Shown here: in pieces, positions 5,893 to 56,838 of the stretch
Layout of the letters: each line of letters begins with the position of its first letter
How positions within the stretch are numbered: position 1 is the first letter of the stretch
Assembly: GCA_964373715.1 (NCBI GenBank)
Contig: CAYJVR010000005.1
Location: forward strand, 46,805 to 110,804
DNA length: 64,000 nucleotides
Origin: an uncultured Planctomycetia bacterium
GTDB lineage: Bacteria; Omnitrophota; Gorgyraeia; 1-14-0-20-64-10
Reading direction: 5' to 3'
Position numbers and translations under genes: made by a program
The notes under the pieces: model-generated
Database searches by the model: none
What the model was told of the DNA's origin: nothing
The model's input: only the letters and a program-made list of their open reading frames with translations

Positions 5893-5942
5893 AGAGATCT
5901 ATTGTCATTCGGATAGACCAGAAAAACCGGGAATCCGGACTT

Positions 5943-14900: not shown

Positions 14901-16019
14901 ATACTGGCCGAAAACGGAGTTGACGCCGCAGCATCCGACGATCTGTTCCAACGCCTCGGCATCGGCCAAACGGGCCCGGCCCGGAAGGATCTTCGCCAAC
15001 GCCGAATCGTTCAGCGAGGTCCACACCAGCGCGGTCTGGACCGGCTGATTGCTCCGGACAAACTCGCTGATGCTGAACGTCCTGTTGTCCTCTCCGACAA
15101 AAGAGATTTCCGTAGGGGTCGCGTTGACGGAAAAAACACGATCCCGGTCAAGAAGGGAGATCCGCCCGGTGCCGTCAATCGCCAGCGTGACAAAGTGAGG
15201 ATGCGCTTCGTTATCAATGTTCCGCTCCACAGCCACGGTCACCGCCTGCACCTTCCCCTGGTTCTGCCGGATCAGATCAATCGCCTGACGGAAGACAGCC
15301 GCCCCGGTGTCGCTGAAAACAACTCCCTGAGAAGCGCCGCCTCGCGCCGCTCCCATCGAAGCGATCTCATTCAAGTCTAATTGCGCCGATCCGTCCGGAC
15401 CGAGCGGCCGGACCGAGCCGGTGTGAACCGCGTGGCGGGCCGCCATGTACGATTGATCAAAAACCAACCCCGCCGGATCCATCGCAAGAGATGATCCCTG
15501 GTGGTTCCGGGTCACGTACGCGGCGCAGGAAACGCATTGCGGATCCCCCATATCGGCGCCGGCAACGGCCTGCTGAACCGCCGGGTTACCCGGCGCTAAA
15601 AGGGCCGCCATGATCTGGTCCCACATCTTGGTGTTCGAGACCTCTTTGCCGTATTTTGAAAAAAGCAATTCCAACCGGCGGACCGCCTCCGCCTCATTAT
15701 CCAAAGGAGACTGAGGATTCCAGCCGGGCATGGTTTCAGACCAGATCGGATCGGCCGAAAAACGGCCGACAACATTCTTCAAGCTGCCAGTTCCGGTAAA
15801 GGGAGCGGCTATCGTCCGTAACGCCTCTTCCAACCCGGCCAAAACACCGGGGGCTTCCGAAGTCTGGCCGGGGCGCAACGCCCACACCGGGGCAACCTGC
15901 GTCAGAACAACGGACAGCATGGTGACGAAAGCAAACGATTGACGATAACCGGAAAACTTATGAGACCGCATCGATTTAATTCTCCCTATTAAATGATTTA
16001 ACTTCTCGTTTGGACTCAT
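5943..16019 (-). CDS. Giant (3358 aa) multidomain protein. It carries a papain-like Cys/His candidate region near the N-terminus, a GlmS-like glutamine amidotransferase (type 2) module, tandem SIS domains, a third SIS-like domain, an ACT domain and a C-terminal beta-helix module I identify from memory as DUF4954-like
   Basis: ORF-track ORF. N-terminus has a signal-like segment (MRSHKFSGYRQSFAFVTMLSVVLTQVAPVWA). Class II GATase matches: GCCGVNSVFGQYGGIRAILDAVLRLKYRAPDNTGLLVW (about 14900-14930) and HGRWAMTGDPSRWNAHPH / VVVHNGQVKG (about 13480-13590). SIS motifs: WSGSTASTVKLF / VATTKGFESVLYSL (about 12050-12450), VLVIGSRNNPIYIEGELKAEEIAWLV (about 11700-11800) and VHIIGGGQAYEAAKELARVLSMLGIFAEA (about 9980-10060). 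ACT-like segment: AIATWDRSGLLRDIGTVVSNAGLSIEDIV (about 9140-9260). Nucleotides about 6600-8560 encode hexapeptide-repeat sequence that aligns end to end with the stand-alone 663-aa protein at 34525..36516 (GAIVESSVIQWGSSVES ... GFHHQALLIAA ... GYGANVGSNHTGKEPDQEI ... VKRNEGKY). Confidence 0.85.
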   Translation of the reverse strand: MSPNEKLNHLIGRIKSMRSHKFSGYRQSFAFVTMLSVVLTQVAPVWALRPGQTSEAPGVLAGLEEALRTIAAPFTGTGSLKNVVGRFSADPIWSETMPGWNPQSPLDNEAEAVRRLELLFSKYGKEVSNTKMWDQIMAALLAPGNPAVQQAVAGADMGDPQCVSCAAYVTRNHQGSSLAMDPAGLVFDQSYMAARHAVHTGSVRPLGPDGSAQLDLNEIASMGAARGGASQGVVFSDTGAAVFRQAIDLIRQNQGKVQAVTVAVERNIDNEAHPHFVTLAIDGTGRISLLDRDRVFSVNATPTEISFVGEDNRTFSISEFVRSNQPVQTALVWTSLNDSALAKILPGRARLADAEALEQIVGCCGVNSVFGQYGGIRAILDAVLRLKYRAPDNTGLLVWTEEGPRVVKAGMDIQGQGDGEPGTLIQYLYNYPIYPETFPHADKTMSGNPYQPQHDLLQQIQESINRGRLVWARSRQQGISPQQKEQYRQEAAGAWSEARRREREWLLPSAVHEARLQGFKLLSEEGLMEFVPTSEQIGTGRWPLYDLTRTTLGDLFEGRASVQVGRVGGVWAGDQVLIRHNDLPDLVREIGRLFDLTPEFVQLFLRAELSHALQEAKGLIPGKTQEIMRVYDLLSSRALSGQLTPKEHERWDEVMDFLVGRWLVVPPDYNVDPTRHVFRMQGGLIGLFQAHPEWLSEVKRRFEERVPGRGKNWFDFWKRERNLNMPGHAFAALVDWFHDWAHTQKVDIVENGQVIQAPLLPDKVYQRILQIRQQQVDTGVSNPTQPQRGTYRRGYSLGAVTEFTVRLLGEMVVGHGRWAMTGDPSRWNAHPHNTKSRVVVHNGQVKGTINSALRKEHMEAFQQSGPEAQYFKDFEGYYWAEETTPTGTKARYSIVTDTRTIVVHWDYVAKQFEMDKAAGRVEADGLMVKLNLLGQLNQDRNEFNRAQVWNRVVENLRAQGRREINPDEVAFRVATLEMEDGSELGVNATSLHSPLMTYVVSHDRPVDIVMVGERILVTSDYAAGIALFPAPEVAEAARKLSEMQQQLLKTLEHLRELRQLPPSQGGINAQQYAQEVTHALREYEQRADPIRKQYKVDVYHLKELNKFARVTRRLDEQGAARLNVDVTHLDGSPLTEKELTKEAKKVEETVSPELGVKGIYRTFMEMHIDEIPKILLDQAVSYMAFNQQGQPVSVNIPTLNAGYLRDRFGQKLENLRRIFLIGVGSSWRDAMVAEQLFRELLPGVEILVYDPVDIQNRGIKLNPKTDLAVGMSWSGSTASTVKLFNRFSSEGVSMMSVTGKTGSDMGRLSKESAGVIDVKSGPESSVATTKGFESVLYSLSLLGVQMSQFRGDPKLDAERKAYVQNLWEVVDHVYGLIVEPGKEDRNRVLDTREDVESLVNRVARAWKDRQKVLVIGSRNNPIYIEGELKAEEIAWLVGKAADIGDESWRNLLLRTADPKVPEAERVATIFNMTDPGRLDEFIRAIDEVTQAGIQVVVQTFAEDNRHLARLIQLQEQGKIDLVIVPRVRLTLQGLVDAPLYFRFSLALARAHGITDSQIDNSRNLAKSVVVSGARSREELIQASAARYVTTQEQAGQVEGSQASFRNYQRGLARAWPALQTPRQQSISRLPLLLNMALERWTGPEGVLVHPEDKTRAGQLLQRFSKAAGAPEPRARVVIVTDEEATQYAAGAAVGPFGWTEPVVSGVRSELYTKGVRVRIGGWYYRASYNSAEKRYTIRYAPDLNPYAQGKEPETKEVSVTQAVQTVSFNGREYIVDPSSFLPDPKEPEKLLSGLQLKATQPELLLSGIENIKVFRSTDRGIEDLVDEGTVVFLISRGRNRGPANAQLPQVAFPFKLRTGAEVPRQQDERSEERMISLAQRLRDRGVPLVTISDDVSGLRDSKFNPTRVAHLSLEADVDDVSVYPLTYLALLTVGARMGELLGRNTADFQNSLRTVPAMVAEVLADRVSAKRLEDLLRKLSQYRKVHIIGGGQAYEAAKELARVLSMLGIFAEAQLNDSAWHGPLAAVDPNKKKYSENTDDPAYRLKYGVNPKYPLDNDTLVLFVMTDSDFADSTNTDAQVYDSRNGRFLLVTLNDNVQKPGPGQTNLIRRSIIEAGPVKLAPITEEQVNNPELQDPEGIFAVPNATDALGNFNVAAFGAILAERFGHFRDEALEEGPQEPVSTFRPGPGPAIPPTGLIQVPADFLGERLRGAAFRQLPEGALGDLFEMGLGVFETNQPQVRMYPDSRNPQHAVIAIATWDRSGLLRDIGTVVSNAGLSIEDIVSDNYPQEPIEGRMRVAYELLDMRESVQRLQELGVADAIRTALAVPPVEAGVHTQFGSRLSDEEVEGIIEAYQGYSVLQSVPGQARVQTVVTEFPGDPQRSKMYVVADVRPAPGQLVQDVLTALQMEGTVGFAEAFQLNNQAPRVVLAVADVNTPMATLHQKGLDQEIKDRFQAGLEEKYDVVKAIKEAIAGSPFLQAVQQVVSGQWQSAVPPVQLSAAQISQMESQGNSAEDWSRVRVVPSTDLTKIRDNRFFGDVEIWSIGTGTAEVKPGVNLPLGIYDSTVINSRIGSNPLIYGNSVVSNQVVKENVIIVNGDVTASGKPTSFGLGTKIAVGPETVGVKGAGRIIRPFADMLLDAAARLATSGVNEGLLAKYNGVEPAQIPAADRDAVVRSREHQALQADYNAAHAQYVAAAASPVGIVEKGARIVNSRDVSNVYVGEGAQIIGAAAVRDTTILSSNTEQTKITDGAIVESSVIQWGSSVESAAQVRESVLLEHSHAERGGFVTGSVLGPNTGVAEGEVTAALVGPFVGFHHQALLIAAVWPEGKGNIGYGANVGSNHTGKEPDQEILPGEGTFFGLSVDIKYPSNFSGSPYLLIATSVKTLPQTVAFPFALINTPGETLPGLAPAFNEIVPAWVLMDNLFAVKRNEGKYISRNKATRHQFDFRVFRQDTVDLMKDARARLQAVQGKPAPVSGYYLDTPQTWTPEGENQQPVTAPGIPGLGKNYMKTDADAVQLAIDAYSRFILHYALRGVYDRVDALAKAGQLAQVANLLTQASPDPAWEHQRQTLAQERPGITLRDALAEFVKLEEQAAKDIESSKAKDDFRGRKIIPDYAEIHPPAEQNAFVQDTWANFRGAPAQGGKPAIEGIQPRVIGPNGLVPQLQQAGLESITVLVPTEIFTPVLSTVAARTNISGSNVPTGLELMLERVSLPSADTASLSVGVMAGTLDGVKGLAIGAALSRVKTTDGQLLPVAFVVDTVQEKAKLIEMGFSENSIFRIGDTAANTPNRDSAIAAADFYLKQVYGVGQVEDVGVNRSVSGTLEQILLALFRIQLLPESLALWESFVDRATLALQA

Positions 16020-18089: not shown

Positions 18090-20537
18090 TTACGACAAAG
18101 AAGAAACGGCCGCCTTGCCGGTCCCGCCCTGAGAAGGGTGCTTGGAGTTAGATCCAATCTTTCCTAAAACCGCCTCCACCCGGTGAACCCGACCGTCCTC
18201 ATGGGGAGGAATCAAGTTGCCTTTCAAAACCTTGCCGTCCACGATCAACTGCTTGACGCCGTGAGAAACCCCGTCCGGGTTCTTAATCGTGATCTCGTAA
18301 ACAGAGCCCCGGAAAGGCCGGCGGATCTTCGCCTCTTTCCAGCTTTTCGGGATGCAGGGGTCCACCAAAAGCCCATGAAAATCGCGCCTGGCCCCTAAGA
18401 TCCACTCGGTGGCCCCCACGTACATCCAGGGGGTGGTTCCGGTGTTCCAGGTAAAAGCCCCCTCCCCGAACCGGTCGGCCGAACCGGGCCCGATGATGTA
18501 CTCCGCCCAGACGTACGGCTCCACCTTGTACTTGTCGTGATCCTCCTTGGCCTTCGAAATCGGCAAAAGCTTCGAGAAGGTGTCGTACGCGCTCTCCGCC
18601 CGTTTGATCGTGCAGTCGGCAACCACCTTAAACGCGCAGGCATGGGAGAAAACCGCCGCGTTCTCCTTGGTGCCCGGACAGAAAGAGGTGACGCGCCCGA
18701 TCCCCGGGTTGTACTCGGTGTAGCTGGGCAGGAACAGGGCCGGCCCGTAAGGAGTATCGAGATAGTTATCGATCTTATCCAGGATGCTGGAGAGCCTCTC
18801 CGGAGGGACAACCCCGCTCAAAATCGCCCAGGTCTGGGAGTTAAGCGGCACCTTGCCCTCTTTATTCTCCTGGGAACCGATCCGGCGGCCGTCGTCGTTG
18901 AAAGCGGCCAGGTACCAGGCGCCGTCCCATCCAATCTCATTGATGATCTTGGTCAACTCATCCGCTTTGGAGTGCATCTCATGCGCCACCGCGGTGTCCC
19001 CCAGGAACTCCGCTAATTCCTTCATATGCTTGCAGGCGCGCACTAGGGCCATCCCCAGCCAGACCGACTCTCCCTGGCCCTTGATGCCGACATGATCGTA
19101 GGCATCATTCCAATCGGCGTGGCCGATCAGCGGCAGGCCGTGCTGGCCGCGGGCGTGATAGATGTACCGGACGGCGCGCAGCGCGTGCTCGTAAACGGAG
19201 GCCTCCCCCTTGTCATGGAACGGGATCACCTTGTTCAGGAACTCGGTATCGCCCGTCTCTTTGACGTAGGCGACAATGCTGTACGGCAGCCAGACCGCCA
19301 CGTCAGCCTTTTTGATGACGCCGCCTACTCCCTGGTTCTCCCATGTCCCTTCCACTTCGGAAAAACCGGAAACGGCATGACCGCTCTCATACTGGTAGAA
19401 AACAAGCCTTTCCAGCTTCGCCCGGGCGGTGTTCAGATCAGCGCTGAGCAAACCCTCCACATCCTGCGCCGTATCCCTGTACCCCTGGCCCCCCTCCGCC
19501 CCGTGGTAATGGGAGGTCCCGCGCCAATGGGTGATCGCGTAAAGCTGGTATTTGCCCCACAGGTTGACCATGAGGTTCATCTTGGGATCCGGAGTCTCGA
19601 TCCAGACCTGCTCGAGCTGGTGTTTCCAATAAGCCTTGATCCCCTCGATCTCCTCCTTGCAGGTCTCCACCGATTTGAACCGTTTGACCAGGGTCGGCAC
19701 ATCGTTGCGGTTATCGGTGATGCCGGAGATAACCACAAATTCCTTCGTCTCTCCGGGATTGAGCGCCACGGTGCTCTGCAGGACAGCCACCATATCCTCG
19801 CCGCGGACCGTATGGTTCGAAAGTTTCTTGGCCTTCAGCCCCGCCGGATCGCTGATATCGCCGTACTGGCCGATAAACGCCTCCCTGCGGCATTCGTAGC
19901 TGTCCACCTTCAAGCTGGAGGAGAGGAAGCCGTACCCCGGCTTGTGCCAGGTCTTGAACGGCTGCTTGAAGGCGACAACCGTCTGCAGGTTTTTGTCGTA
20001 AAAAGAATCGTTGTAGAGGCAGAGGATGTTCCGGTAATGGGTCTCCAGGGCCACATCGCCGCAGACCAGCTCGACAAACGGGTAGACCTGGAGCCTCTTC
20101 CTGGCCTTCGAAGCGTTCGTGAGGGAGACGAGCCAGATCTCGACCGGAGTGTCCTTCGCCACGAAATAGGTCACCGAGCCCTTCACGCCGTTGGCGGAAG
20201 CGGATATCTTCGTGTAGCCGAAACCGTGCCGGCACTCCCACTGGTCCAGTTTCTGCCGGCTGGGCTGCCAGTTGAGGCTCCAAACCTTTTCCTTCCCGCC
20301 GGATTTCCGGGCAGGCTCTTTGATGAAAAGATAGCGGCCGGACCGGTCGTTGCTCAGGTGGTCCCACCGGTGGAGCCGGTAATACTTCGGGTCTCTTAAG
20401 TAAGAAAAACCTCCCCCCGTCTGAGAGATGAGGCAGTGGTAGATGTCGTTAAAGAGGTAATTAAACCAGGGACGCGGCGTATTCGGGTTGGTGACGATGA
20501 ATTCCCGCCCGTCTTTGCTAAAGTGTCCGTATTTCAT
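18090..20537 (-). CDS. Glycoside hydrolase family 94 disaccharide phosphorylase (cellobiose or N,N'-diacetylchitobiose phosphorylase; context favours chitobiose)
   Basis: 815 aa. N-terminus MKYGHFSKDGREFIVTNPNTPRPWFNYL and the catalytic-region motif HGLPLIGHADWNDAYDHVG are characteristic of GH94 (compare the Cellvibrio CBP motif HGLPLIGRADWND). The size fits the family. Confidence 0.9.
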   Translation of the reverse strand: MKYGHFSKDGREFIVTNPNTPRPWFNYLFNDIYHCLISQTGGGFSYLRDPKYYRLHRWDHLSNDRSGRYLFIKEPARKSGGKEKVWSLNWQPSRQKLDQWECRHGFGYTKISASANGVKGSVTYFVAKDTPVEIWLVSLTNASKARKRLQVYPFVELVCGDVALETHYRNILCLYNDSFYDKNLQTVVAFKQPFKTWHKPGYGFLSSSLKVDSYECRREAFIGQYGDISDPAGLKAKKLSNHTVRGEDMVAVLQSTVALNPGETKEFVVISGITDNRNDVPTLVKRFKSVETCKEEIEGIKAYWKHQLEQVWIETPDPKMNLMVNLWGKYQLYAITHWRGTSHYHGAEGGQGYRDTAQDVEGLLSADLNTARAKLERLVFYQYESGHAVSGFSEVEGTWENQGVGGVIKKADVAVWLPYSIVAYVKETGDTEFLNKVIPFHDKGEASVYEHALRAVRYIYHARGQHGLPLIGHADWNDAYDHVGIKGQGESVWLGMALVRACKHMKELAEFLGDTAVAHEMHSKADELTKIINEIGWDGAWYLAAFNDDGRRIGSQENKEGKVPLNSQTWAILSGVVPPERLSSILDKIDNYLDTPYGPALFLPSYTEYNPGIGRVTSFCPGTKENAAVFSHACAFKVVADCTIKRAESAYDTFSKLLPISKAKEDHDKYKVEPYVWAEYIIGPGSADRFGEGAFTWNTGTTPWMYVGATEWILGARRDFHGLLVDPCIPKSWKEAKIRRPFRGSVYEITIKNPDGVSHGVKQLIVDGKVLKGNLIPPHEDGRVHRVEAVLGKIGSNSKHPSQGGTGKAAVSSLS

Positions 20538-20592
20538 CTTTTTCCTTGTTTGTTTTTTGTTTTACGCGTGTGATATCTGGCGGCGGGTTTAT

Positions 20593-21798
20593 TTATAAAC
20601 CGGCGAAAACGTCGCGGATAACCAACGAGGCGGCTCCCACGGCGACGCAGTTCTCACCGAGGCGGGCCGGCACGATCTTCACGGCGTTAGCCATCTCTTC
20701 AAAAGAATACATGCGGATCATCTTCTTGACCGCTTCAATCAGAGCAGGGCCGGCAGCCTCAACACCGCCGCCGATGACGACCGCACCCGGGTTCAAGAGG
20801 TTGATCAGGAAAGCGATCCTGACCCCAAGCCGCTCACCGGCCTTCTGGATGACATCCAAAGCCAGCTTATCGCCGTCCTTCCCGGCCTGAATAACAGTTT
20901 CCAGGGTAATCGCTTCAGGTTTCCCTTTGGAGACATCCGACAATTTCGAAACGGCCCCGGCCTTGATCATCTCTCTGGCCTCATCCGGAATCCCGAGATG
21001 CGAAGCCCATGGCTTTAACGCGGAGATATTGCCGATCCAGACATCGGTTACATCAGCCTGCTCCTTGATCGACACCTCGCCGGCAGTGCCGCTGCTGCCG
21101 TGGTAAATCTCCCCGTTGATGATCATGCCGCACCCGACGCCGGAAAACATAAAAAGCATGATGTCCACATCGGTACCGGCACCGAGCGACCATTCGCCGT
21201 AGGCGGCGGTCGTCACGTCATGGTCCAGCTTGACCGGTATTTTGAACTGCTCCTGAAGAAGGGCCGTTATCGGCACGTAGATCGAGGCGACCCCTTCGGT
21301 GCAACGGATGGTGCCGACCTCCCGGTCAATCACTCCGGAGGCACCGATCTGGATGCCTCGCACCTTCTTCACATCGAGATTCGAGGACTTTACCACCTGC
21401 TCCACTTGGTCGATAATGGTTTTCACCACATTATCGGCCGTGTCGCGGGGCCGCAGCGCCTTGGACTGCGCGATGATGGCCCCTTCCAAATCGGAAAGGA
21501 CCGCCCTGATCGTAAACACTCCGAGATCCACCCCGATCACATAGGCCGATTTCGGGTTCAGGACAACGATCGTCGGCCTGCGGCCGCCGGAAGAGATGTC
21601 GAGCCCCTTCTCAATCACGATCCCCTGCTCGATGAAGTTGTTGACGTAGTTGGAAACCGTAACGATGTTCAGCTTGGTCAATTTGGAAATGTCGGTGCGG
21701 GAGATCGGGCCGTAGCGTTTGATCGCCTCCAAAATGGAAACGTTCTTCCGCTCCCGTTCAGTCAACGAATGCTCGTCTGTTTCAACGCCTCGAATCAA
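20593..21798 (-). CDS. ROK-family transcriptional regulator (NagC/Mlc-like: N-terminal HTH plus a ROK sugar-kinase-like domain)
   Basis: 401 aa. HTH region (ILEAIKRYGPISRTDISKLTKLNIVTVSNYVNNFIEQGIV) followed by a ROK fold with a Gly-rich region (VIGVDLG, GASGVID, GCGMIING). Lies directly upstream of the GH94 gene. Confidence 0.85.
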   Translation of the reverse strand: MIRGVETDEHSLTERERKNVSILEAIKRYGPISRTDISKLTKLNIVTVSNYVNNFIEQGIVIEKGLDISSGGRRPTIVVLNPKSAYVIGVDLGVFTIRAVLSDLEGAIIAQSKALRPRDTADNVVKTIIDQVEQVVKSSNLDVKKVRGIQIGASGVIDREVGTIRCTEGVASIYVPITALLQEQFKIPVKLDHDVTTAAYGEWSLGAGTDVDIMLFMFSGVGCGMIINGEIYHGSSGTAGEVSIKEQADVTDVWIGNISALKPWASHLGIPDEAREMIKAGAVSKLSDVSKGKPEAITLETVIQAGKDGDKLALDVIQKAGERLGVRIAFLINLLNPGAVVIGGGVEAAGPALIEAVKKMIRMYSFEEMANAVKIVPARLGENCVAVGAASLVIRDVFAGL

Positions 21799-21974
21799 GG
21801 AAGGACCCCTTCTTTTTCTTTATAACGCTTAGTGAATGGCAAGTGTGGTTCTTTTTACCTGGCTTTACAGGAGTTTTATCATCTCCTGCAAAAGCCCGCT
21901 TGTCAATCAAAAACCTGGCATAAATGCCTTCCGGTGTCATTGCGGGAAAACACAAAGGGCCGACGCGGCAATCT

Positions 21975-22075
21975 CGTCCTGAAACAAAGCGTTGGCCAGT
22001 TGGCCTGTTTGCGAGTTAGCCGGTTAAACGCGCTAACCCACTAACCCGCAAACTCGCTAACCGGCTAACACGGAT
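21975..22075 (-). promoter_or_regulatory. Promoter/operator region upstream of the ROK regulator. It holds a near-palindrome GGCCAGTTGGCC, a near-palindrome TTAGCCGGTTAA, and four to five direct repeats of (G)CTAACC spaced about 9 bp apart
   Basis: Read directly at 21985-22070: ...ttggccagttggcctgtttgcgagttagccggttaaacgcgctaacccactaacccgcaaactcgctaaccggctaacacgg. This is the 280-bp intergenic region 5' of the ROK gene. Confidence 0.4.
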
Positions 22076-22079
22076 GTCT

Positions 22080-23099
22080 TTACCCCCTCTTGAGCAATTC
22101 CTGATAGCACTCGCCTAAAGTCTTCCAAACCGTCTGCGGGTCCTCCGCCCGGATCGAGATGTACGCGGCCCCGTAGTAGCTCCAGGCGGCGAAATTGCGG
22201 ATCCCCGCCGAGTAGCCGGTCTCGATCGCAAGACGGATCTTCTCCTCTTCCCCGCTGGGAATATTGAAGTTGAGTATCCAGAGGTGCGGCTCCTTCCCGT
22301 ACTGGTCCGCCAATTTCTTGATCCGTTTGGCGAAGCGGTCCACAAACGGCCCGACATCGCTCTGGTGCGGCCTCCAGTACGGGTCCGTGCCTATGGACCA
22401 CAGTGTCGGGATCTGCGCTACTTTCTCCCAATCGTTTACCGTCGAGGAATTCTCAAAAGGAAGCAGGCAGACGGACGCCTTCAGCCCTTGCTGAACAGTC
22501 GCGTCGCAGAGAAAATGGGTCGTCTCCACCAGGCACTCTTCTTTAAATGACCTGACCTGAGGGGTCATCCGGTCCGGCATCGGTAGTCCATGCCTCTTTT
22601 TGAATTTCTCCCGGCAGAGCGAGCAGCGGCAGGCCCAGAGCTTGGGGATTTGGTCCTGCCCCTCCGGCTCCGGATAGATCATGAAATGGGGCTCATCCCA
22701 GAAAAGAACATCTGCCCCCAGTTTTTTGCAGGTCCGGATCCATTTCAGGAGGTAATCCCGGAAAACCGGATGGTTCGGGCAGGCTATGGCCAACGACTCC
22801 CCGAGGGAACTGATCTGTCTCAGCGAAAGATTTTTGGCCACAAGGCTGGAGTAGGTCTCCCCCCCAAAGACCTGCCCCACCGCCCAGGGATCCATCCAAA
22901 CTTCCAGGCCGAACTCATGGCACCCCTTGATGATCTCTGCGAAGGCCCCCTGGTAGAACTCCAGGTCCTCCTCGCTGAAGGTCAAAACGATGTAGTTGCA
23001 GCCGGCATCCCGGATGACCTTCAGATCCTCCCGGACCCGCCAGGGAATCCTGTTGCCATAATAGCTGATGCCGAGTTTCACCAGTGTGGGCATGGACAA
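22080..23099 (-). CDS. Hypothetical TIM-barrel protein (sugar-phosphate isomerase/epimerase-like or glycosidase-like), 339 aa
   Basis: ORF in the nag locus between the ROK gene and nagA. N-terminus LVKLGISYYG... with alternating beta/alpha character. I am not confident of the family. Confidence 0.6.
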   Translation of the reverse strand: MSMPTLVKLGISYYGNRIPWRVREDLKVIRDAGCNYIVLTFSEEDLEFYQGAFAEIIKGCHEFGLEVWMDPWAVGQVFGGETYSSLVAKNLSLRQISSLGESLAIACPNHPVFRDYLLKWIRTCKKLGADVLFWDEPHFMIYPEPEGQDQIPKLWACRCSLCREKFKKRHGLPMPDRMTPQVRSFKEECLVETTHFLCDATVQQGLKASVCLLPFENSSTVNDWEKVAQIPTLWSIGTDPYWRPHQSDVGPFVDRFAKRIKKLADQYGKEPHLWILNFNIPSGEEEKIRLAIETGYSAGIRNFAAWSYYGAAYISIRAEDPQTVWKTLGECYQELLKRG

Positions 23100-23132
23100 G
23101 TTTAATGTTTAAAGTTCAAAGTTTAATGTTGG

Positions 23133-24326
23133 TTAGAAACCGCAACGGACAGCCCCTTGCTTCCACGCGGTTTTTCCTCTGATGATGGTTTCCGTAACCT
23201 GGTACTTTGAGTCCCATAATACCAGATCGGCCAGTGCTCCGGGCGCCAGCCGGCCCCTGAACTTCTCAAGGCCAAGTGTGCGGGCGGGGTTCAGCGTCGC
23301 CATCCGGATCGCCTCCGGGAACGTGATCCCCATAAACCCGATCGCGCGGCGCAGCATCCCGTCAAGCAGCAGCGTGGTGCCGAAAAGACTGCCGCGTTCC
23401 GACCCTCCCTTGAGTTGCCAAGCGGAACCGTCCTTCGATTCATACTCGCGGCCGTCGTACGCATAGATGCCGTCCGGAAGCCCCGCGGCCGGCAGCGCGT
23501 CGGTGATCAACACCAGCGCCTCCGGCTTCAGCACGCGGCCGGTCCAGCGCAGCACCTCCGGGTGGACGTGTACGCCGTCGGTGATCAGCTGCACCGTCAC
23601 CCCGTGATCGGTCAGCACAGCGCCGAGAGCGCCCGGCTCCCGGTGATGGAGCCCCCGCATCGCGTTGTACAGATGGGTGACATGGCGGATCCCCTTCTTG
23701 AAACCGGCCTTCGCCTCATCGAACGTGGCGTCGGTATGCCCGAGCGATCCGACCGCGCCCGCGTCTTCGAGCACCGGCAGCAAATCGAGCGCGCCGGGCA
23801 ACTCCGGCGCCATCGTGAACATACGGAACGCCCCCTTGCCGAGCCCGAGCAGGTCCGACAGGTTCTTCCGATCGGGCAACCAGATCCGATCATGCCGGAT
23901 CAGCCCCGCGCGGGCGGGGTTCACGTACGGCCCCTCGACGTGGAGGCCCAGTATCTCGGCCCCTTCGGCGCCGCGGCCGTTGCAGAGCTCCGCGGCGATT
24001 TCGAGGTGGCGGTTCTGCTTCAATTCCCGGCAGACGACCGATGTGGCGAGAAACGAGGTGGTGCCGTGCGCGGCGAGCGTCCGGGAGACCGCCTGCACCG
24101 CTTCAGGGGTCCCTTCCATCAGGTCCCGCCCTCCGGCCCCGTGGATGTGGAGGTCAATCATGCCGGGCGTGATCCATCCGGAAACGGTTTCAGAAGGATC
24201 TTTCGGATCTTGGTCTGCGCGGCCGGCCTCCCCCGCGTAAAAGATCATGTCTCCGTCGATACCGACGGCGCCGTCCTCGATGACCTGCTCCGGCGTGACA
24301 ACCTTACCGAGAAACCACCTCTTCAT
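23133..24326 (-). CDS. nagA: N-acetylglucosamine-6-phosphate deacetylase
   Basis: 397 aa. Amidohydrolase motifs DLHIHGAGG, GHTDATF, HLYNAM and ITDAL. Typical NagA length. Confidence 0.9.
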   Translation of the reverse strand: MKRWFLGKVVTPEQVIEDGAVGIDGDMIFYAGEAGRADQDPKDPSETVSGWITPGMIDLHIHGAGGRDLMEGTPEAVQAVSRTLAAHGTTSFLATSVVCRELKQNRHLEIAAELCNGRGAEGAEILGLHVEGPYVNPARAGLIRHDRIWLPDRKNLSDLLGLGKGAFRMFTMAPELPGALDLLPVLEDAGAVGSLGHTDATFDEAKAGFKKGIRHVTHLYNAMRGLHHREPGALGAVLTDHGVTVQLITDGVHVHPEVLRWTGRVLKPEALVLITDALPAAGLPDGIYAYDGREYESKDGSAWQLKGGSERGSLFGTTLLLDGMLRRAIGFMGITFPEAIRMATLNPARTLGLEKFRGRLAPGALADLVLWDSKYQVTETIIRGKTAWKQGAVRCGF

Positions 24327-24399
24327 GAGTTCTTCTCCGCCTTGGGTCCTGCCGCCTGCGGACTGCTCCGCCGTCCGTCCTCGTCCGCTATAAAAGCGT

Positions 24400-24640
24400 G
24401 GCGGACTGCGGGCGCGGCGGCGGAGGCCTCTCCTCCGGCGTCACCCGCGGCTGCCCTATACCACCTCTCAATCGCAATAAGCAACTGACGCGAGGGGATG
24501 TCCGGCAGAGACATCCCCGTCGGAAGCTGCTTACAAACCGCGGGAGGGGGCGAGGGGATGGTTTCGAAGGCCATCGCCGGACCGAACGGGCACGGATCGT
24601 CCGCCAAAGTTCTGTGGCGGACGAGAGTGAGGGACGGCGT
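24400..24640. repeat. GC-rich intergenic repeat region between the permease and nagA. It has hairpins GTCCGC-N12-GCGGAC (24406-24429), GGAGG-cctct-CCTCC (24443-24457) and GTCCGCCAAAGTTCTGTGGCGGAC (24591-24614), plus a GGTTTCGAAGGC ... GAGAGTGAGGGACGG module also found at 28580-28607
   Basis: Read directly. The 380-bp non-coding gap inside an otherwise compact same-strand gene string is unusual. Confidence 0.5.
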
Positions 24641-24708
24641 TGAGCGCGGCGGCCGCGCAGGGGCCGCAAGCGGGCCTGAGAAACTTTCCCCTCGGCCCCG
24701 CATCGTCA

Positions 24709-26001
24709 TCAGCCGACGGTGGAACCGCGGGTGAGCCCCTCGATGATGTAGCGCTGGAAGCAGAGGAAAACAACAATGACAGGAAGGGAGGTGATCGCCG
24801 AGCCGGCCATCAGATGGACCCAATCCACGCCGTGAAGCGACTTGTAGAGGGCCAAGCCGACCGGCAGCGTGCGCATCTCGACCGTGTTGGTCAGAAGGAA
24901 CGGGTAAAGGAATGTGTTCCAGGAACCCATGAAGGTGTTGATCCCGACAACGGCCAAAGCCGGCTGGGAGAGCGGGACGATCACGCGCGTGAAAATCTGG
25001 AATTCGGAAGCCCCGTCAATCCGGGCCGCCTCCTCAACCGCCAAAGGCAACTTGGAGATGTACTGCCGCATGAGGAAGATGTTAAACGGGGCCACCAGGT
25101 TCGGCACAATCAGCGCCCAGTAGGTGTTCAGCCACCCCAGGTGCTTCATCAGGATGAAGACCGGCACCATCAGCACCTGCGGCGGGATCGCGATCGAACC
25201 GACAATCATGAAGAACATCAGCTTCTTGAACGGAAAGTTCCGGCGGGCGAAAGCATATCCCACCATCGTCGAGAAAAGAAGGTTGCCTAAGGTGACCGCC
25301 AGCGCTATGCCGAAAGAGTTGACGGAATACCGGCCGAACGGGCCGCTGACCAGCACATCCCAGTAGTTGTTCAGCGTCCATTTCCTGAAGACAAACCGGA
25401 TATCATCCAGATAGACCGTTCCGGCCCCCTCATTGAAGCTTAAGGCGAGCTCTTCCGCCTGCCGCTCCGGCAGGTTGGGACTGAGCATCGAGAGGTTGAA
25501 GGCCTTCATCGGGATCCGGACCGTCTCCCAGGAGGTCTTCAACCCGCCGCGCAGAAACCGCTGGATCCCAAGGCTGGCGCTGCGGCCCTTCACGTCCGCC
25601 AGCTCAAGCGTGAAATCCTCCCCGCCGATCTCCCCCTTGACCTTGAACTCAAGGTAAGAAAATTTCCGCATATCCTGCCCGACGCGTGTGACCCACCGGG
25701 CTGGGCCGTCCCCCTTCTCATAACGGATCACCATCCGGCGGTTCTGCCGCAAGACCGGCTCCGCCGGATAAAAAGAGATCTGCACCTTTGAGGTGCCCTC
25801 CGCGCTGACCATAATCGGGCCGCCGATGGAGTTCGTGCTCCCGATCTCAAAGTCAGCCACAAGCACCTCTTCAATCCGCTGGAACAGGGTCCCGGTCGGC
25901 TTCATCGAGGTGTAGAACATCAGGACCAGCGGCAGCAAGGTCAAGACGAGCATCACCGTGAGAATACTGATCGCCACGCTAATCGCCAGCCGCTCACGCA
26001 T
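24709..26001 (-). CDS. CUT1-family carbohydrate ABC transporter permease (MalG/UgpE-like) with a roughly 170-aa periplasmic insertion that carries the carbohydrate-binding-like module
   Basis: 430 aa. TM1, then an insert (about 25390-25900) containing LEFKVKGEIGGEDFTLELAD ... SWETVRIPMKAFN ... LALSFNEGAGTVYLDDIRF, which matches the module of the 40596-45684 paralog array. Then a typical permease core with an EAA-like loop (AVEEAARIDGASEFQIF). Confidence 0.85.
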   Translation of the reverse strand: MRERLAISVAISILTVMLVLTLLPLVLMFYTSMKPTGTLFQRIEEVLVADFEIGSTNSIGGPIMVSAEGTSKVQISFYPAEPVLRQNRRMVIRYEKGDGPARWVTRVGQDMRKFSYLEFKVKGEIGGEDFTLELADVKGRSASLGIQRFLRGGLKTSWETVRIPMKAFNLSMLSPNLPERQAEELALSFNEGAGTVYLDDIRFVFRKWTLNNYWDVLVSGPFGRYSVNSFGIALAVTLGNLLFSTMVGYAFARRNFPFKKLMFFMIVGSIAIPPQVLMVPVFILMKHLGWLNTYWALIVPNLVAPFNIFLMRQYISKLPLAVEEAARIDGASEFQIFTRVIVPLSQPALAVVGINTFMGSWNTFLYPFLLTNTVEMRTLPVGLALYKSLHGVDWVHLMAGSAITSLPVIVVFLCFQRYIIEGLTRGSTVG

Positions 26002-26025
26002 TTCGGAAAACCTCCCCGGCGTTCA

Positions 26026-28284
26026 TCAGGCCGGCTCCTCGTATTTGAACAGGCGCATCTGGACCCACGAGAAACACATCGTGATCATAAACAACAGATA
26101 CCCAACCGCCGCCGCCTGCCCCATGTCGAAACGCTGGAACCCGGCCTGATACAGGTACCAGACAACCGTCGTGGTCGCCCCCAGAGGACCGCCCCGGGTC
26201 ATGGCGAAAATCTCCGGGAAAACCTGAAAGGTATGGATCGTGTTGATCACCACGGCCAGCAGAACAATCGGCCGCAGCTGGGGCAGCGTGATGTGGCGGA
26301 ACTTTTGCCATTCGTTGGCCCCGTCAATCGAGGCCGCCTCGTACAACTCGACCGGGATCGTCTGCAGGCCGGCCAGGAACAAAACCATGTAGTAGCCGAA
26401 ACTCGCCCAGATGTTCATAATCATGATCGCCGGCAACGCCCACTTCGTGTTCAAGAGCCAACTTGGGTTCGGAACCGGCAGGTGGAACATTTGCAGAAAC
26501 TTGTTGATCAAGCCGTCCGGCGCGTAGAGGTAAGTAAAGATCGTCGCGATGACGATCACGGACGTAGCCACCGGAAGGAACATGCCTGCCTGGTAAAGCT
26601 GTTTGAACGGCACCTTGACATTGATCAGCACCGCCGCGAAGAGGGCCAGCATCATCGTGAATGGTATCGTGCCGACAGCGAAAAGGATCGTATTCCCGAG
26701 GGCCTGAAGGAAGGCCGGGTCTCGGATTACATACCAGAAATTACCGAGCCCCACGAAAGCCATTTCGGAGCTCAGAAGGTTATACCGGGAGAAACTCAGC
26801 ACGAAGGAATGAAGCAGAGGGATCAGGTTAAACCCGAAGAAGGTGATCAGCCACGGCGCCAAAAAGGTAAGGTCGATCGCGGTGTTGTACAAACTCAAGC
26901 TCTTCCGCTTGACCATCCCGACCTTACGCCGGCGGATGATGGCGTAGGCGACAAACACCCCGGCCAACCCCAAGAGGAAACAGCCGAACACCACGACATC
27001 GCTGATCCGCCCCTCCATCTTCTGCTCCTGGAGCAGAGGGGTAATCTCGGCCGAGGCCTTCTTGAGCATTGCCTCCGGATCCCTATCGTTTAAGATCACC
27101 TCTTCAATCGCCCGCGTAATCTTCTCCTGGATCTGGGTCCAGTTCGGATGGGCGGGCGGAGCTACCGCGTAGCGAAGCTGCTCGAACATCATCCGGTGTT
27201 CTGGGTGGCTCCTGTAATAAGGATGTTCCATCGCTGCCTTGACCGTTGGAACGATGTTCCGCTGGGCCTCCACGATGGACATCGCCTGCTCCTCCTGTAT
27301 AAGGAAGAGCGAAAGCTTTAAGGCGGCCTCCGGATACTTTGACCCCTTGAGCACCACGATCATCTCCCCGCCGGCAAACGACGCCGGGGTGCCGCGTGCG
27401 GCGGAGGGTTTCGGCAGGAGGCCGACGCCGTAGTTCAAGGTGGGGTTCATCCGCGGAATCAGCGCGAAATTCCAGGAACCGGAGATTTGAATCCCCACCT
27501 TCCCTTCGGCAAAAAACTGGTTAACCTGTTCCTGATGGTGAACCAGCGAGTAAGGCTTTAACGAAGCGTAGAACTTGAGCGCCTCCACCATCGGCGGTTC
27601 ATCCAGAACGCATTTCGTCCATTCCGGATCGAGCACATTCGCCCCATTGCCCCAGGCAAACGGCAGGAACTCCTGCCAAGGGGAATACGGCTCACTCACA
27701 TGGATGCCGAACCCGTAAATATCGGGACCCAGAGCATCCACCGCCTTGGCGGCATTGAGCAACTCCTCCCATGTGGTGGGAGGCTTATCGGAGTCAAGGC
27801 CGGCCTGGGCAAAGAGATTCCTGTTGTAAAAAAAGAGCCGTGTCCCTGCCATCCAGGGAACACCGTAGATCCTGTCCTTGTAGGTGACCGGGTCCCACAA
27901 AAGGTACTGATCCTTAATCGGGGCCACCTGATCGGTAACGTCCCGCAGAACTCCGGAAGAGGCGAACTGAGGCACCATATCCGTGCCGAGTTCGGCCAAA
28001 TCCGGGGCGTTCCCGGCTGCGATCGAGGTGATCAGCTTGTCGAGCCCGAAATCCCAGGAAAGCTGCTGAAAACGGACCCTGATGCCGGGGTTCTGCCGCT
28101 CGAACTTGTCCAGCAGAGAGCGCATGAGTTCTTCGCCCACGGAAAATTCCCAAAAATCAATCGTCACTTCAGCGCTTGCAGGGGACAGGAGACAGGGGGC
28201 AAGGGGAAAGAGGAGGAAAAAGAAAACGACGGCTGCCGAAAGAAGAACGAAAAGCTTTTTCAAACCGTGAATTCGATCGGACAC
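26026..28284 (-). CDS. Fused carbohydrate ABC solute-binding protein (N-terminal, about 430 aa) and MalF/UgpA-like permease (C-terminal)
   Basis: 752 aa. Signal peptide, then an SBP domain (NAPDLAELGTDMVPQFASSG ... GGEMIVVLKGSKYPEAALKL), then six TM segments with an EAA motif (EAASIDGANEWQKFRHITLPQ). The frame is continuous. Confidence 0.85.
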   Translation of the reverse strand: MSDRIHGLKKLFVLLSAAVVFFFLLFPLAPCLLSPASAEVTIDFWEFSVGEELMRSLLDKFERQNPGIRVRFQQLSWDFGLDKLITSIAAGNAPDLAELGTDMVPQFASSGVLRDVTDQVAPIKDQYLLWDPVTYKDRIYGVPWMAGTRLFFYNRNLFAQAGLDSDKPPTTWEELLNAAKAVDALGPDIYGFGIHVSEPYSPWQEFLPFAWGNGANVLDPEWTKCVLDEPPMVEALKFYASLKPYSLVHHQEQVNQFFAEGKVGIQISGSWNFALIPRMNPTLNYGVGLLPKPSAARGTPASFAGGEMIVVLKGSKYPEAALKLSLFLIQEEQAMSIVEAQRNIVPTVKAAMEHPYYRSHPEHRMMFEQLRYAVAPPAHPNWTQIQEKITRAIEEVILNDRDPEAMLKKASAEITPLLQEQKMEGRISDVVVFGCFLLGLAGVFVAYAIIRRRKVGMVKRKSLSLYNTAIDLTFLAPWLITFFGFNLIPLLHSFVLSFSRYNLLSSEMAFVGLGNFWYVIRDPAFLQALGNTILFAVGTIPFTMMLALFAAVLINVKVPFKQLYQAGMFLPVATSVIVIATIFTYLYAPDGLINKFLQMFHLPVPNPSWLLNTKWALPAIMIMNIWASFGYYMVLFLAGLQTIPVELYEAASIDGANEWQKFRHITLPQLRPIVLLAVVINTIHTFQVFPEIFAMTRGGPLGATTTVVWYLYQAGFQRFDMGQAAAVGYLLFMITMCFSWVQMRLFKYEEPA

Positions 28285-28379
28285 AAACAGACTCTCCTCG
28301 GTTGATGAAAGCTTTTAGTCTACCACCGCTTCCATACAATCTCAACCGAACACTGGACTCCTGGAAGGGTATCGGCTGA

Positions 28380-28740
28380 CGCACCGCTCGTCGCCCCCAG
28401 CGAGGGCTCCTCGCTCCGGCATCGGCCTCGCTCGTCCGCCAACGATCGTTGGCGGACACCCTGCCCGCTCAGCCTTCTGACGGTGCGCTATCCGACACCC
28501 TTCCGGGAATCTTCCCAACGTCACCCGTGCTTAAGCAGCTACATAAACAATGTCCAGCCTAAAAAAAAGGGGCGGGGGGAGGGTTTCGAAGGCGAGAGTG
28601 AGGAACGGGGACGGAAGTGTGTGTCCGAGGGACGTCGAACGAAGCGAGCGGGCACGGCTCCCGAAGGGAGAGCGAGCAAGTTCGTCGAGCGCAGTCCGGC
28701 TCGCAGGGACGGACAAGCGACCCAAGGACACACCTTCCGT
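28380..28740. repeat. Highly structured GC-rich intergenic region. It has a perfect 24-nt palindrome GTCCGCCAACGATCGTTGGCGGAC (28433-28456), a GGGTTTCGAAGGCGAGAGTGAGGAACGG module (28580-28607), and nested inverted repeats (GTGTGTCC...GGACACAC, 28616-28731). It shares modules with 24400-24640
   Basis: Read directly. Track ORFs here are R/K-rich junk. The region is flanked by divergent genes. Confidence 0.5.
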
Positions 28741-28763
28741 CGCTGGGCCTCACCTGGAAAGCC

Positions 28764-28792
28764 TTGACCAGAGCCTCTCCGTCAAGGATAAT
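28764..28792 (+). promoter_or_regulatory. Candidate sigma70-like promoter for the HAD gene: -35 TTGACC (28764-28769), 17-nt spacer, -10 GATAAT (28787-28792); ATG at 28818
   Basis: Hexamers and spacing read directly on the plus strand. Confidence 0.4.
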
Positions 28793-28817
28793 AAGCGGTC
28801 TTTAGTGAGAAAAACTG

Positions 28818-56100: not shown

Positions 56101-56819
56101 TGCAGTTCGCCGTACAGCGCGGCCCGGTTCTTCAGCGGAGCGGTCAAGAACTTCTGCTGAATCGAAAGGACCTGCTTTTCCTGAGAGGCGACCGGCGTCC
56201 GCTCCAGCGCAAGGTTCGCGTACTCGGAGTCGGCCCGGCTGGCGTACCCTTTAGCGAGCTGAAGCTGGATCCAGACCGCCCATTGACGGTTCAATTCCAG
56301 AGGAACATCGGCCCGTTTGGATTGCTCCTCCAGCATCTTGATCTGGAGGTTTCTCAATGCGGTATCGTCGATCACTCCACTGTGCACAGCGGCAAGCAGA
56401 GGGTCCACCGCCGGAAGAGGGACCGCCTTCTTCGGCGGCTCCGGCGGTTTGAGTCGTCCCGGGTCCTGAAAAACGACGTTGCCCTTGGGATTATCGGCCG
56501 GAGGAGGATTCCCTGTCGGCAGGTAGGTAAACCAAAGAATTCCTCCGAACAAAAGAGCAAGAGCCGTCGCGGAAAAAATCCCCCAGCGTCTCCCGTTCGA
56601 ATTCTCTTCGAGACCGCCCAGGGAATCGATCGGAGCGACCATCTGCTGCGCGGGAGCCGGCCGGAGCTGGTTGACCAGATCCTGCAAACCGCTGTCGGTC
56701 TGCTCAGCCACCTGGGTGGTTCTCAAAGCAAAAACGGGGGTGCTCTGGCCTAAGCTGACGCTTAAGACCAACACCCCCACAAGAATTTTTCTTCCGATAC
56801 CAAGCCGTTTCATACCCAT
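53085..56819 (-). CDS. Giant (1244 aa) secreted protein with an N-terminal TM anchor, a long helical region, the conserved C-proximal module, and a C-terminal domain about 70% identical to that of the upstream giant; start probably at 56813
   Basis: Signal and TM segments. Module GGPVTYGPKGETYFGGKKNEPGEKLPILYERTSARILLAQPEIRIVFDE (about 53700-54450). C-terminus ... DAGYVAWAPFVAKSGVPVAVLT ... KVQAYLDSLA. A GGGGGAAGG SD-like purine run precedes the start. Confidence 0.8.
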   Translation of the reverse strand: MGMKRLGIGRKILVGVLVLSVSLGQSTPVFALRTTQVAEQTDSGLQDLVNQLRPAPAQQMVAPIDSLGGLEENSNGRRWGIFSATALALLFGGILWFTYLPTGNPPPADNPKGNVVFQDPGRLKPPEPPKKAVPLPAVDPLLAAVHSGVIDDTALRNLQIKMLEEQSKRADVPLELNRQWAVWIQLQLAKGYASRADSEYANLALERTPVASQEKQVLSIQQKFLTAPLKNRAALYGELQRAIDDQLSAEIGYWEHKLKLDTWSDRADIKFREGIVGSVKAREESLARFREKIGIHVDQLKEMRLLYADLGKLGSYLPLPGIQPEGVSLLDIREMVPVIAPPAKALTKEEKEGVIASARDRIDRLLDLESQMTEADDTIASLYYYWTARQNKLGYIAGRAFDSAEYHEKLNSVRAAGRKVLAAQRTLVKATTPDGQLFAQLALDDANRKHLEAMIGQAKFRVDQLAVQVGKTTSAKLLPVWIGSDDKVALAIAQIDADGLKTVQEVFGSLTELGMPTFPLAVQEPRSSLLNFQALVPPVVIGLPTPADEAEARKLYEKLLKVPGQLKQQRVAVIQAEADKLSEEAHKEYGLYQAAHPELAKRKGYMSGISYENWIDVMHGSDVKKAQSNVRKKLIVLVDMEESGKGFLEARKAYEQALFDQIDAELTRVGIRLEYREDRLALYQRKSNIFFNHIPTWMELVAADRSIQTQLNDQKKFYQELQKAGIPLPALGAAVSTHPSADSLQLLLGDKGSTPLSGVVWVQKGEKQIAIPVISGEGQWMWLSRPRYLPEGGDRKISTTRVIIPKGLPGEGRSIPKERLLAVAAFTEFGPKEYVIAVQGDWRYEEQSGYYWVVGGTGIYSVGPEAIRLGLLAKGDPKDPAKLLPPTQGFVGYVTYQVRPVRGPKGETILEPVPVGVTTRHVSLEVYNQKGKDGKEAPIPLASLVFDEEGRMQFGRLYVGGPVTYGPKGETYFGGKKNEPGEKLPILYERTSARILLAQPEIRIVFDEVMGRPILSMTHHPVESLPQAGKEEDLPVATVAEGLRRLPGELEGAVLLQTGGLSRDLRELSVGPDSNISMAAAILWADIQQRTAAEAIPAVRQVQVGFPSADVETPRVFLFDETQYPGQDAGYVAWAPFVAKSGVPVAVLTNRLTVAEGLNRLFRESGLREDQYRVVSVEAYGGDREAALRSLEESFSGMAGFVPIHPSVGFEVMKKILEEMGFVLYAAEFKVDFQKVQAYLDSLA

Positions 56820-56838
56820 CCTTCCCCCAACCTCGGCG

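Follow-up and report, generated by a model that had tools for sequence, protein, structure and literature searches.

Three palindromes with identical GC-rich arms lie in two non-coding gaps of a chitobiose/N-acetylglucosamine (GlcNAc) uptake operon of a Candidatus Omnitrophota genome. A reading made from the sequence alone had offered them as operators for nagA and the adjoining transporter genes, as dispersed repeats or as structured RNA. We analyzed the 64-kb stretch of DNA that carries the operon (the window) together with related loci and metagenome loci, designated here by L numbers. We find that the palindromes are probably parts of a family of structured interspersed repeats, each ~165 nt long, and not regulatory sites of the nag/ABC locus. 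We class the family as a new one of a known kind, the structured interspersed repeats, from Omnitrophota-like genomes.

Palindromes 2 and 3 are hairpins of a repeated module

The pattern GTCCGC-N12-GCGGAC has three sites in the window, each 24 bp long and with identical arms. Two are in gap A (24327-24708), which runs from the second permease gene to nagA: palindrome 1 (GTCCGCTATAAAAGCGTGGCGGAC, 24383-24406) and palindrome 2 (GTCCGCCAAAGTTCTGTGGCGGAC, 24599-24622). The third, the perfect 24-mer GTCCGCCAACGATCGTTGGCGGAC (28434-28457), is in gap B (28285-28817), between the operon and a divergent HAD-hydrolase gene. Their sequences and arms are as first described, at positions 23, 8 and 1 nt, respectively, from where they had been placed. 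When the spacer is allowed to vary from 6 to 16 nt, three sites are observed against 0.16 expected in the window, a number reached by 1 of 100 shuffles, and a search tolerating up to three mismatches found no further good palindrome site elsewhere in the 64 kb. The hairpins have folding energies of -14.5, -19.0 and -19.6 kcal/mol for palindromes 1, 2 and 3, with z-scores of -4.0 to -6.5.

BLAST comparison of the gaps with the related loci pointed to L002 5900-6072, which aligns end to end with 24540-24705 and also, with rearrangement, with 28570-28750. Using a covariance model (CM) improved with metagenome members (model R2), we identified three copies of the same module in the window. Copy A1 is a full module of ~165 nt on the plus strand, antisense to the operon (24540..24705; 123.4 bits, E 3e-31). 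In A1 the outer stem, P1, is long; the stem P2 has conserved internal loops rich in purines (GAACGGGCACGG / GAGAGTGAGGGA); P3 forms the apical hairpin, and P4 (24645-24672) is a hairpin at the side. The minimum free energy of A1 is -101.6 kcal/mol on the plus strand (z -6.2) and -84.3 kcal/mol on the minus strand. Compared with the L002 copy, P3 differs in sequence yet still pairs, and 13 pairs are compensatory. Copy B1, which carries the variant core GAGCGGGCAGGG, lies on the minus strand, sense to the operon and upstream of its promoter (28351..28516; 79.6 bits, E 3e-19); 28356-28386 and 28481-28511 form its outer stem. Copy B2 has the canonical core (28600..28750, plus strand; 106.5 bits, E 1e-26), a minimal P3 (CTCCCGAAGGGAG, 28658-28670) and stems at 28598-28617/28734-28753 and 28619-28634/28718-28733. 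B1 and B2 form a head-to-head dimer. The three copies are 44-60% identical to each other and each keeps the fold. Palindrome 2 is the P3 hairpin of A1, and palindrome 3 is that of B1.

With fragments, the three recognizable copies make up most of both non-coding gaps. Between B1 and B2 lies an AT-richer linker (28517..28569) that holds the 9-mer CGTCACCCG and an A8 run. It is followed by a partial module on the plus strand (28570..28608) that abuts B2 and in which the 5' strand of P1, GGGTTTCGAAGGC, is joined directly to GAGAGTGAGGAACGG; this fragment corresponds to copy A1 minus a 51-nt P2/P3 segment. The same relationship appears in two blocks common to the gaps, GGTTTCGAAGGC (24560-24571 and 28582-28593) and GAGAGTGAGGRACGG (24623-24637 and 28594-28608), which adjoin each other in gap B and have exactly 51 nt (24572-24622) between them in gap A. 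The sequence-only reading had described the first copy as the second with a hairpin-bearing segment of about 51 nt added, and that description holds; the shared blocks it listed are present in both gaps, with coordinates shifted to those given here. The 9-mer CGTCACCCG does occur twice, at 28519-28527 and at 24439-24447 rather than at 24461, and alone it is not significant, as by our estimate ~1.5 shared 9-mers are expected between two such regions.

The rest of the gap-A insertion (24327..24539) is unclassified GC-rich sequence and a linker, the latter with a small hairpin (24492-24518) and an 11-mer, GCGAGGGGATG, found at both 24490 and 24550. Palindrome 1, an orphan hairpin of P3 type, falls in this part, 57 nt upstream of the nagA ATG. 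The flank TCGTCCGC is common to all three palindromes, and the nagA-proximal half of gap A resembles the other copies around palindrome 1 only. A degenerate fourth module copy at this place was considered and rejected: with filters off, the CM gave at most 3.9 bits over 24300-24560, and local alignment of the region to the other copies was marginal (25 vs 18.2 +/- 2.5, with 12 of 500 shuffles as high). Our first guess, a minus-strand partner copy, is disfavored by the better fold of palindrome 1 on the plus strand (-14.5 vs -9.4 kcal/mol).

The module has a conserved, covarying fold

Folding and covariance analysis, which the sequence-only reading had proposed as a check, returned a strong fold with covariation throughout the family. 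On its G-rich strand, the module is closed by the long stem P1 and has a three-way junction bearing P2, P3 and P4. P2 contains invariant internal loops (GAGCGGGCACGGUUC ... GAGAGCGAG), and P4 is a conserved side hairpin (AGCGCAG..CUCGCUGGGG..CAAGCG); the invariant bases, namely those of the two P2 loops together with AGCGCAG, CUCGCUGGGG and CAAGCG, lie in loops and junctions. P3 is a hairpin of variable length that commonly reads UCCGCC...GGCGGA, and the palindrome noticed in the window is therefore the usual P3 of the family. The termini pair with each other and differ in sequence between subfamilies, and the outer pairs of P1 covary freely.

In an alignment fitted to the CM, standard pairs occupy 89.5% of cells, versus 35-48% after displacement of the partners by 1-3 columns; changes on both sides are seen in 44 of 49 pairs, and the covariation score is 0.527 versus at most 0.084, with none of 500 shuffles reaching the observed value. 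An independent analysis of 30 copies with MAFFT and RNAalifold gave the same helices, with compensation in 26 of 31 pairs. G-U pairs outnumber A-C pairs by 51 to 17, and the modeled purine-rich strand is the more stable one in 39 of 40 copies. This strand bias points to one functional single strand, which could be RNA or single-stranded DNA. The CM consensus also has tandem G-A motifs in P1 and P2. A pseudoknot pairing AGCGAG with CUCGCU in the P4 loop was dropped, as inspection of the alignment showed the variants CACGCU and AGTGAG to be uncompensated.

Copies are dispersed, insertion-polymorphic and paired head-to-head

A 22-base core pattern, CGGGCACGG-N(8-38)-GAGAGYGAG-N11-AGCGC, was used to scan metagenomes and matches 45 loci, of which by our estimate only a few are expected by chance. 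CM searches gave 53 matches, ~46 of them distinct, in 34 sources (the window, L002 and 32 metagenome loci). Member contigs range from 47 to 79% GC. The copies sit in tight intergenic gaps, often 4-40 nt from the neighboring genes, which include those for tRNA synthetases, glycosyltransferases, a chaperonin, ribonucleotide reductase and ThiG; clustering of the flanking genes showed no recurrent neighbor family. Orientation relative to flanking genes is opposite in 25 cases and the same in 20. The L002 copy is sense to the same operon to which window copies A1 and B2 are antisense. In other genomes the repeat is thus dispersed with no link to nag genes, the pattern that the sequence-only reading had held to speak against operators.

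One metagenome has copies that are 86-90% identical at separate loci (L059, L067 and L039), which argues for recent spread. Besides the operon described below, there is a second pair of filled and empty sites, in which the insert is present in L047/L044 and L062 has coupled genes joined by TAATG. Copies also cluster: L059 has four in 2.3 kb, and L058 has six in 5.7 kb. Adjacent copies are arranged head-to-head in all 8 of 8 pairs (p ~1.5e-5 if four arrangements are equally likely). The partners are 40-56% identical, with linkers of 0-12 nt or ~54-99 nt, and usually comprise one canonical copy (CACGG) and one variant (CAKGG). Fixed left and right subtypes were considered and set aside: among these loci, ascertained with the canonical motif, clustering shows no fixed side. 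The 'mosaic' look of the two gaps is explained by head-to-head dissimilar modules, differing linkers and mixed-in fragments.

We looked for a gene that might accompany the repeat. No RAYT (REP-associated tyrosine transposase; REP, repetitive extragenic palindromic) or Y1 transposase was seen among the best 25 of 146 families from the 98 flanking open reading frames (ORFs) scanned, or among 10 ORFs between clustered copies, and the flanking ORFs scanned included no adjacent nuclease, recombinase or reverse transcriptase gene. An autonomous partner gene was rejected on similar grounds, the ORFs between and beside copies being ordinary, with no recurrent neighbor family. A phage, plasmid or viral origin was likewise rejected after searches of IMG/VR viral contigs, plasmid records and phage records gave no matches. 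In Rfam 15, the window has no match at the gathering score, both gaps have no relevant match at E up to 10, and seven other loci have none at E up to 5; the glmS ribozyme and amino-sugar riboswitches, which the sequence-only reading had raised, are among the families that do not match. A full-text literature search found nothing relevant to the repeat.

At two loci (L065 7462-9171 and L032 343-1632) the module is readable without stops, so that neighboring glycosyltransferase genes are fused or extended across it by ORF callers; the module-encoded peptide reads ...SGHGSP...GGESEGSILAQPA.LGPASGLR... Read-through modules of this kind are a likely source of mis-annotated proteins in these metagenome-assembled genomes.

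Both gaps are insertions in a conserved operon

Gene order is common to 20 related loci. The stop codon of the second permease gene (perm2) and the start codon of nagA overlap or abut in L001, L005, L007, L013 and L022; in the window they are 382 nt apart. The sequence-only reading had called a gap of ~380 nt within a same-strand gene string unusual, and the overlap of these genes in relatives bears this out. At gap B, five relatives (L004, L017, L020, L012 and L002) keep a compact transporter promoter, TTGTCA-N17/18-TAGACT. In those with an adjacent HAD gene (L004, L017 and L020), the HAD-transporter intergenic region is only 70-104 nt long, and the -35 hexamers of the divergent transporter and HAD promoters overlap (L004 5209-5296, L017 3904-4007, L020 3381-3450), with TTGTCA and TTGACA on opposite strands within CTTGTCAATCC. 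In the window, the left part of this promoter (CTGGTCAAGGCTTTCC, ~28755-28775) and its right part (GGTAGACTA, ~28317-28325, conserved in the relatives' transporter promoter) are ~430 nt apart. At this point of the promoter, the insert of L001 is decayed and shorter, at ~190 nt. Comparison with these relatives shows both gaps as insertions specific to the window lineage, and the ancestral transporter promoter as split by insertion between its -35 and -10 elements.

A consensus scan placed a promoter-like site for the operon that begins with the solute-binding protein (SBP)-permease gene at 28317..28345 on the minus strand (TTGAGA-N17-TAGACT, with an upstream TG). Its -10 is ancestral, and its -35 lies between copy B1 and the -10. 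A promoter-like site for the divergent HAD gene was found by the same scan at 28764..28792 on the plus strand (TTGACC-N17-GATAAT); its -35 overlaps the ancestral transporter -35 (TTGTCAA in relatives). We infer that the old transporter -10 now works with a -35, TTGAGA, supplied by the inserted DNA. The consensus scan found no promoter-like or terminator-like site in gap A and no terminator-like site in gap B, and neither gap has the GC-rich stem followed by a U tract of an intrinsic terminator. The predicted ribosome-binding site of nagA, GGAGAAG, is inside the gap-A insert. A 7-nt duplication, CT[G/C]ATGA, seen by eye at the borders of gap A, with a similar one in L047, was set aside, as a family-wide test did not support it.

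Other, unrelated long-hairpin repeats occupy the permease-nagA junction in L008 (162-248) and L017 (7547-7635), and inserts that form hairpins seem to land at this junction repeatedly.

Host operon and neighboring repeats

The host operon (18090..28284, minus strand) is syntenic in 20 related loci. It comprises an SBP-permease fusion (28284-26026; 752-aa product), perm2 (26001-24709), nagA (24326-23133), an unknown 339-aa gene (23099-22080), a gene for a ROK regulator with a winged-helix (wHTH) domain (21798-20593) and a GH94 phosphorylase gene (20537-18090). The fusion of the solute-binding protein to a permease is an unusual ABC transporter architecture and is kept in relatives. Within the second permease (24709-26001), ~200 residues form an inserted segment that weakly matches CBM30. 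At 22020-22080, 3' of the 339-aa gene, there are GGTTAGC-like short repeats and an inverted repeat, GTTAGCCGG...CCGGCTAAC, which may be a terminator or another small repeat. Giant genes, with products of 3358, 2437, 1244 and 2374 aa, dominate the window (1-5898, 5943-16019, 45815-63963). An ORF of at least 1966 aa runs off its left edge, which explains why no convincing ORF had been listed in the first 5.9 kb.

A second repeat family, which we call 'module B', occurs in L002 as inverted copies flanking the permease gene (5665-5880 and 7410-7610), in L044 (1450-1700) and in L047 (4045-4300). It is ~180-260 nt long, with imperfect GC-rich terminal inverted repeats of ~40 nt (CGGGGTCCTGTCGGGGGTGGGCCGGCTCCCGGCATCGGGCC) and an AT-richer variable core. 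In L002 and L044/L047 it lies directly beside the structured module, and different repeat families therefore nest together. L020 has small palindromic repeats of the form GTCATTGCGAG-[hairpin]-CGAAGCAATC at ORF ends (1095-1130, 1955-1995 and 2688-2720); two of them carry the core of the window palindromes (GTCCGCCAATGATTTTTGGCGGAC), with surroundings that bear no relation to the 165-nt module.

A probable mobile element and its alternatives

The model best supported by our data is one in which the family spreads as a non-autonomous mobile element. The element would probably be recognized, in a single-stranded intermediate of DNA or RNA, by its shape and by the conserved bases that stay unpaired, by analogy with the single-stranded recognition of REP/REPIN (RAYT) and IS200/IS605-type hairpin ends rather than through conserved terminal inverted repeats. 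The copies in the window would then be passengers in the operon, with three likely side effects: translation of nagA may be uncoupled from the permease gene and served by the new GGAGAAG site in the insert; a very stable structure, of about -84 kcal/mol, would form within the operon mRNA; and the gap B promoter would have been remodeled into a hybrid. A REP-like or MITE-like (MITE, miniature inverted-repeat transposable element) role was among those first suggested. The repeat matches that suggestion in being dispersed, intergenic, orientation-independent and insertion-polymorphic; it departs from it in a size far above that of REP, in a more elaborate fold and in lacking the conserved terminal repeats and target duplications of MITEs.

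Several observations weigh against this model. Mobility is deduced from insertion polymorphism and near-identical copies. Among 26 copies there is no target-site duplication, the longest direct match between flanks averaging 5.08 nt vs 4.89 in shuffles. Termini are conserved only within a subfamily (AAGATTG...CAAGCTT) and not family-wide, and no mobilizing enzyme was found, the flanking and intervening ORFs being ordinary genes. All three window copies fall within one operon in the 64 kb of genome searched; palindrome 1 is outside any recognizable module copy; and that the window copies have diverged yet still fold could mean selection for a host function. The metagenome loci were chosen by the canonical core motif, which biases the picture of the family, and the assignment to Omnitrophota comes from one taxonomically checked contig, whose best named matches are Omnitrophota at ~50% identity.

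A more radical possibility, which we regard as unlikely, is that the module represents an undescribed and mechanistically new class of mobile structured nucleic acid, either an active RNA or a single-stranded DNA substrate recognized by its fold. As RNA, it might have an activity of its own, such as self-cleavage, or act as a scaffold or guide for an enzyme. As single-stranded DNA, it would be recognized by its fold and ~40 invariant unpaired or loop bases. In either form, obligate head-to-head heterodimers would be the functional transposing unit. The conserved core, the covariation and the strand asymmetry, together with the lack of target duplications, conserved termini and a known RNA-family relative, fit such a class better than they fit a plain DDE-type MITE.

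We are doubtful that the modules are instead structured RNAs that serve the host and are kept by selection, whether as a small RNA family, stabilizers, processing sites or attenuators, some of them perhaps catalytic or protein-binding. Nucleotides of the loop core stay invariant while the stems covary in contigs that differ widely in GC content, G-U exceeds A-C on a purine-rich strand, diverged window copies all still fold, and the tandem G-A motifs of P1 and P2 are, as we read them, typical RNA building blocks. Set against this, orientation with respect to neighboring genes is random, copies are present or absent between close relatives and sit between translationally coupled genes, gap A has no promoter- or terminator-like signals around it, and Rfam holds no relative. 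The suggestion that the region is structured RNA therefore stands as far as the fold and its strong covariation are concerned. A cis-regulatory leader or riboswitch is rejected: copies A1 and B2 are antisense in the window and the L002 copy is sense, and the family has no orientation bias.

That the three palindromes are operators, at which a dimeric regulator, either the ROK/NagC-like protein whose gene lies four genes downstream or another factor, would bind GTCCGCC-N10-GGCGGAC and control the transporter and nagA, is very improbable. The idea drew on their identical arms and identical 24-bp length, on their location in one sugar operon that encodes a wHTH ROK regulator, and on the lack of any other good site in the 64 kb. 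The exact motif is missing from 20 of 21 syntenic loci, even though the ROK orthologues there are 71-88% identical, and relatives also lack the intergenic DNA in which the sites lie; the sole match in a relative (L020 1963-1986) is in another context. The sites are also poorly placed: palindrome 3 is ~90 nt upstream of the -35, palindrome 2 comes just after the permease stop codon, and no promoter-like site was found near palindrome 1. Beside unrelated genes in at least 10 other contigs, the UCCGCC...GGCGGA hairpin fills P3. At the ROK gene's own promoter, relatives (L002, L004, L010, L019, L020 and others) conserve TTGACA-N17-TATTTATAAAACGTTTAA, an AT-rich sequence that fits operators of the NagC/Mlc type, and a more plausible candidate ROK operator is the palindrome of the AT-rich AAAACGTTT type at -10/+1. 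The corresponding place upstream of the ROK gene in the window (21863-21893) has a different palindrome, TTTGCAGGAG-N9-CTCCTGTAAA. Finally, we give virtually no credence to chance similarity of GC-rich intergenic sequences, for although the shared 9-mer and individual 12-15-mers are weakly significant alone, the palindrome enrichment, CM E-values of 1e-19 to 1e-31 and family-wide covariation refute it.

If the palindromes are parts of mobile structured repeats, as we favor, a tempting but wrong regulatory annotation is removed from the nag/ABC locus. Repeat insertion has rebuilt the operon, splitting a promoter, apparently repaired with a new -35, and pushing coupled genes 382 nt apart. The CM and its ~46 members define, in the uncultured phylum Omnitrophota, a family of structured repeats with an unusually well-supported fold and a pairing rule like that of bacterial interspersed mosaic elements (BIMEs). 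It gives annotators a mask for spurious ORFs and an explanation for oversized intergenic gaps, and for the mobile-element and RNA field it is a tractable candidate for a structure-recognized mobilization system.

Comparison with known systems

The locus shares with NagC/Mlc/ROK operator systems a GlcNAc/chitobiose operon with a ROK regulator and palindromic sites. Unlike such operators, its sites are rich in GC, lack conservation in orthologous loci and lie in poor positions with respect to promoters.

Structured RNAs of mobile elements include the HEARO and omega RNAs of IscB/TnpB, the IS110 bridge RNAs and multicopy small self-cleaving ribozymes. The module resembles them in its length, within their 150-200 nt, in stems that covary around a conserved core and in occurring in multiple copies per genome in either orientation. 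It differs in having no adjacent enzyme gene in the flanks scanned and no match in Rfam 15. Its internal loops are conserved, whereas those of guide-type RNAs are variable or programmable.

Bacterial MITEs and long-hairpin repeats include Correia/CREE, ERIC/IRU, RUP, BOX, Nezha and RPE. Like these, the module is small, non-coding, intergenic and insertion-polymorphic, with near-identical copies in one population; its termini pair, and it can create or displace promoter elements. Unlike these, it has no detectable target-site duplication, its termini vary by subfamily and its conserved part is internal, and its fold is multi-branched, with covariation in every helix.

The REP/BIME/REPIN elements of proteobacteria are extragenic palindromes whose Y and Z types combine into mosaics, alternating in orientation and joined by defined linkers, and REP doublets are mobilized by RAYT tyrosine transposases. 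The module is ~165 nt long, ~5 times the size of REP, and has a three-way junction and invariant loops where REP is an imperfect palindrome of 20-40 nt; only its P3 hairpin is REP-sized. It further differs from REP/REPIN in its host phylum and in that no RAYT/Y1 transposase was seen in the flanks scanned. In other respects the likeness is close. Like REP/BIME/REPIN, the module is extragenic, often inside operons and independent of gene orientation, with hairpins that show compensatory change and no target duplications. As in BIMEs, adjacent modules are inverted and of different subtypes, are separated by very short linkers or by linkers of ~70-80 nt, and build mosaics that include fragments.

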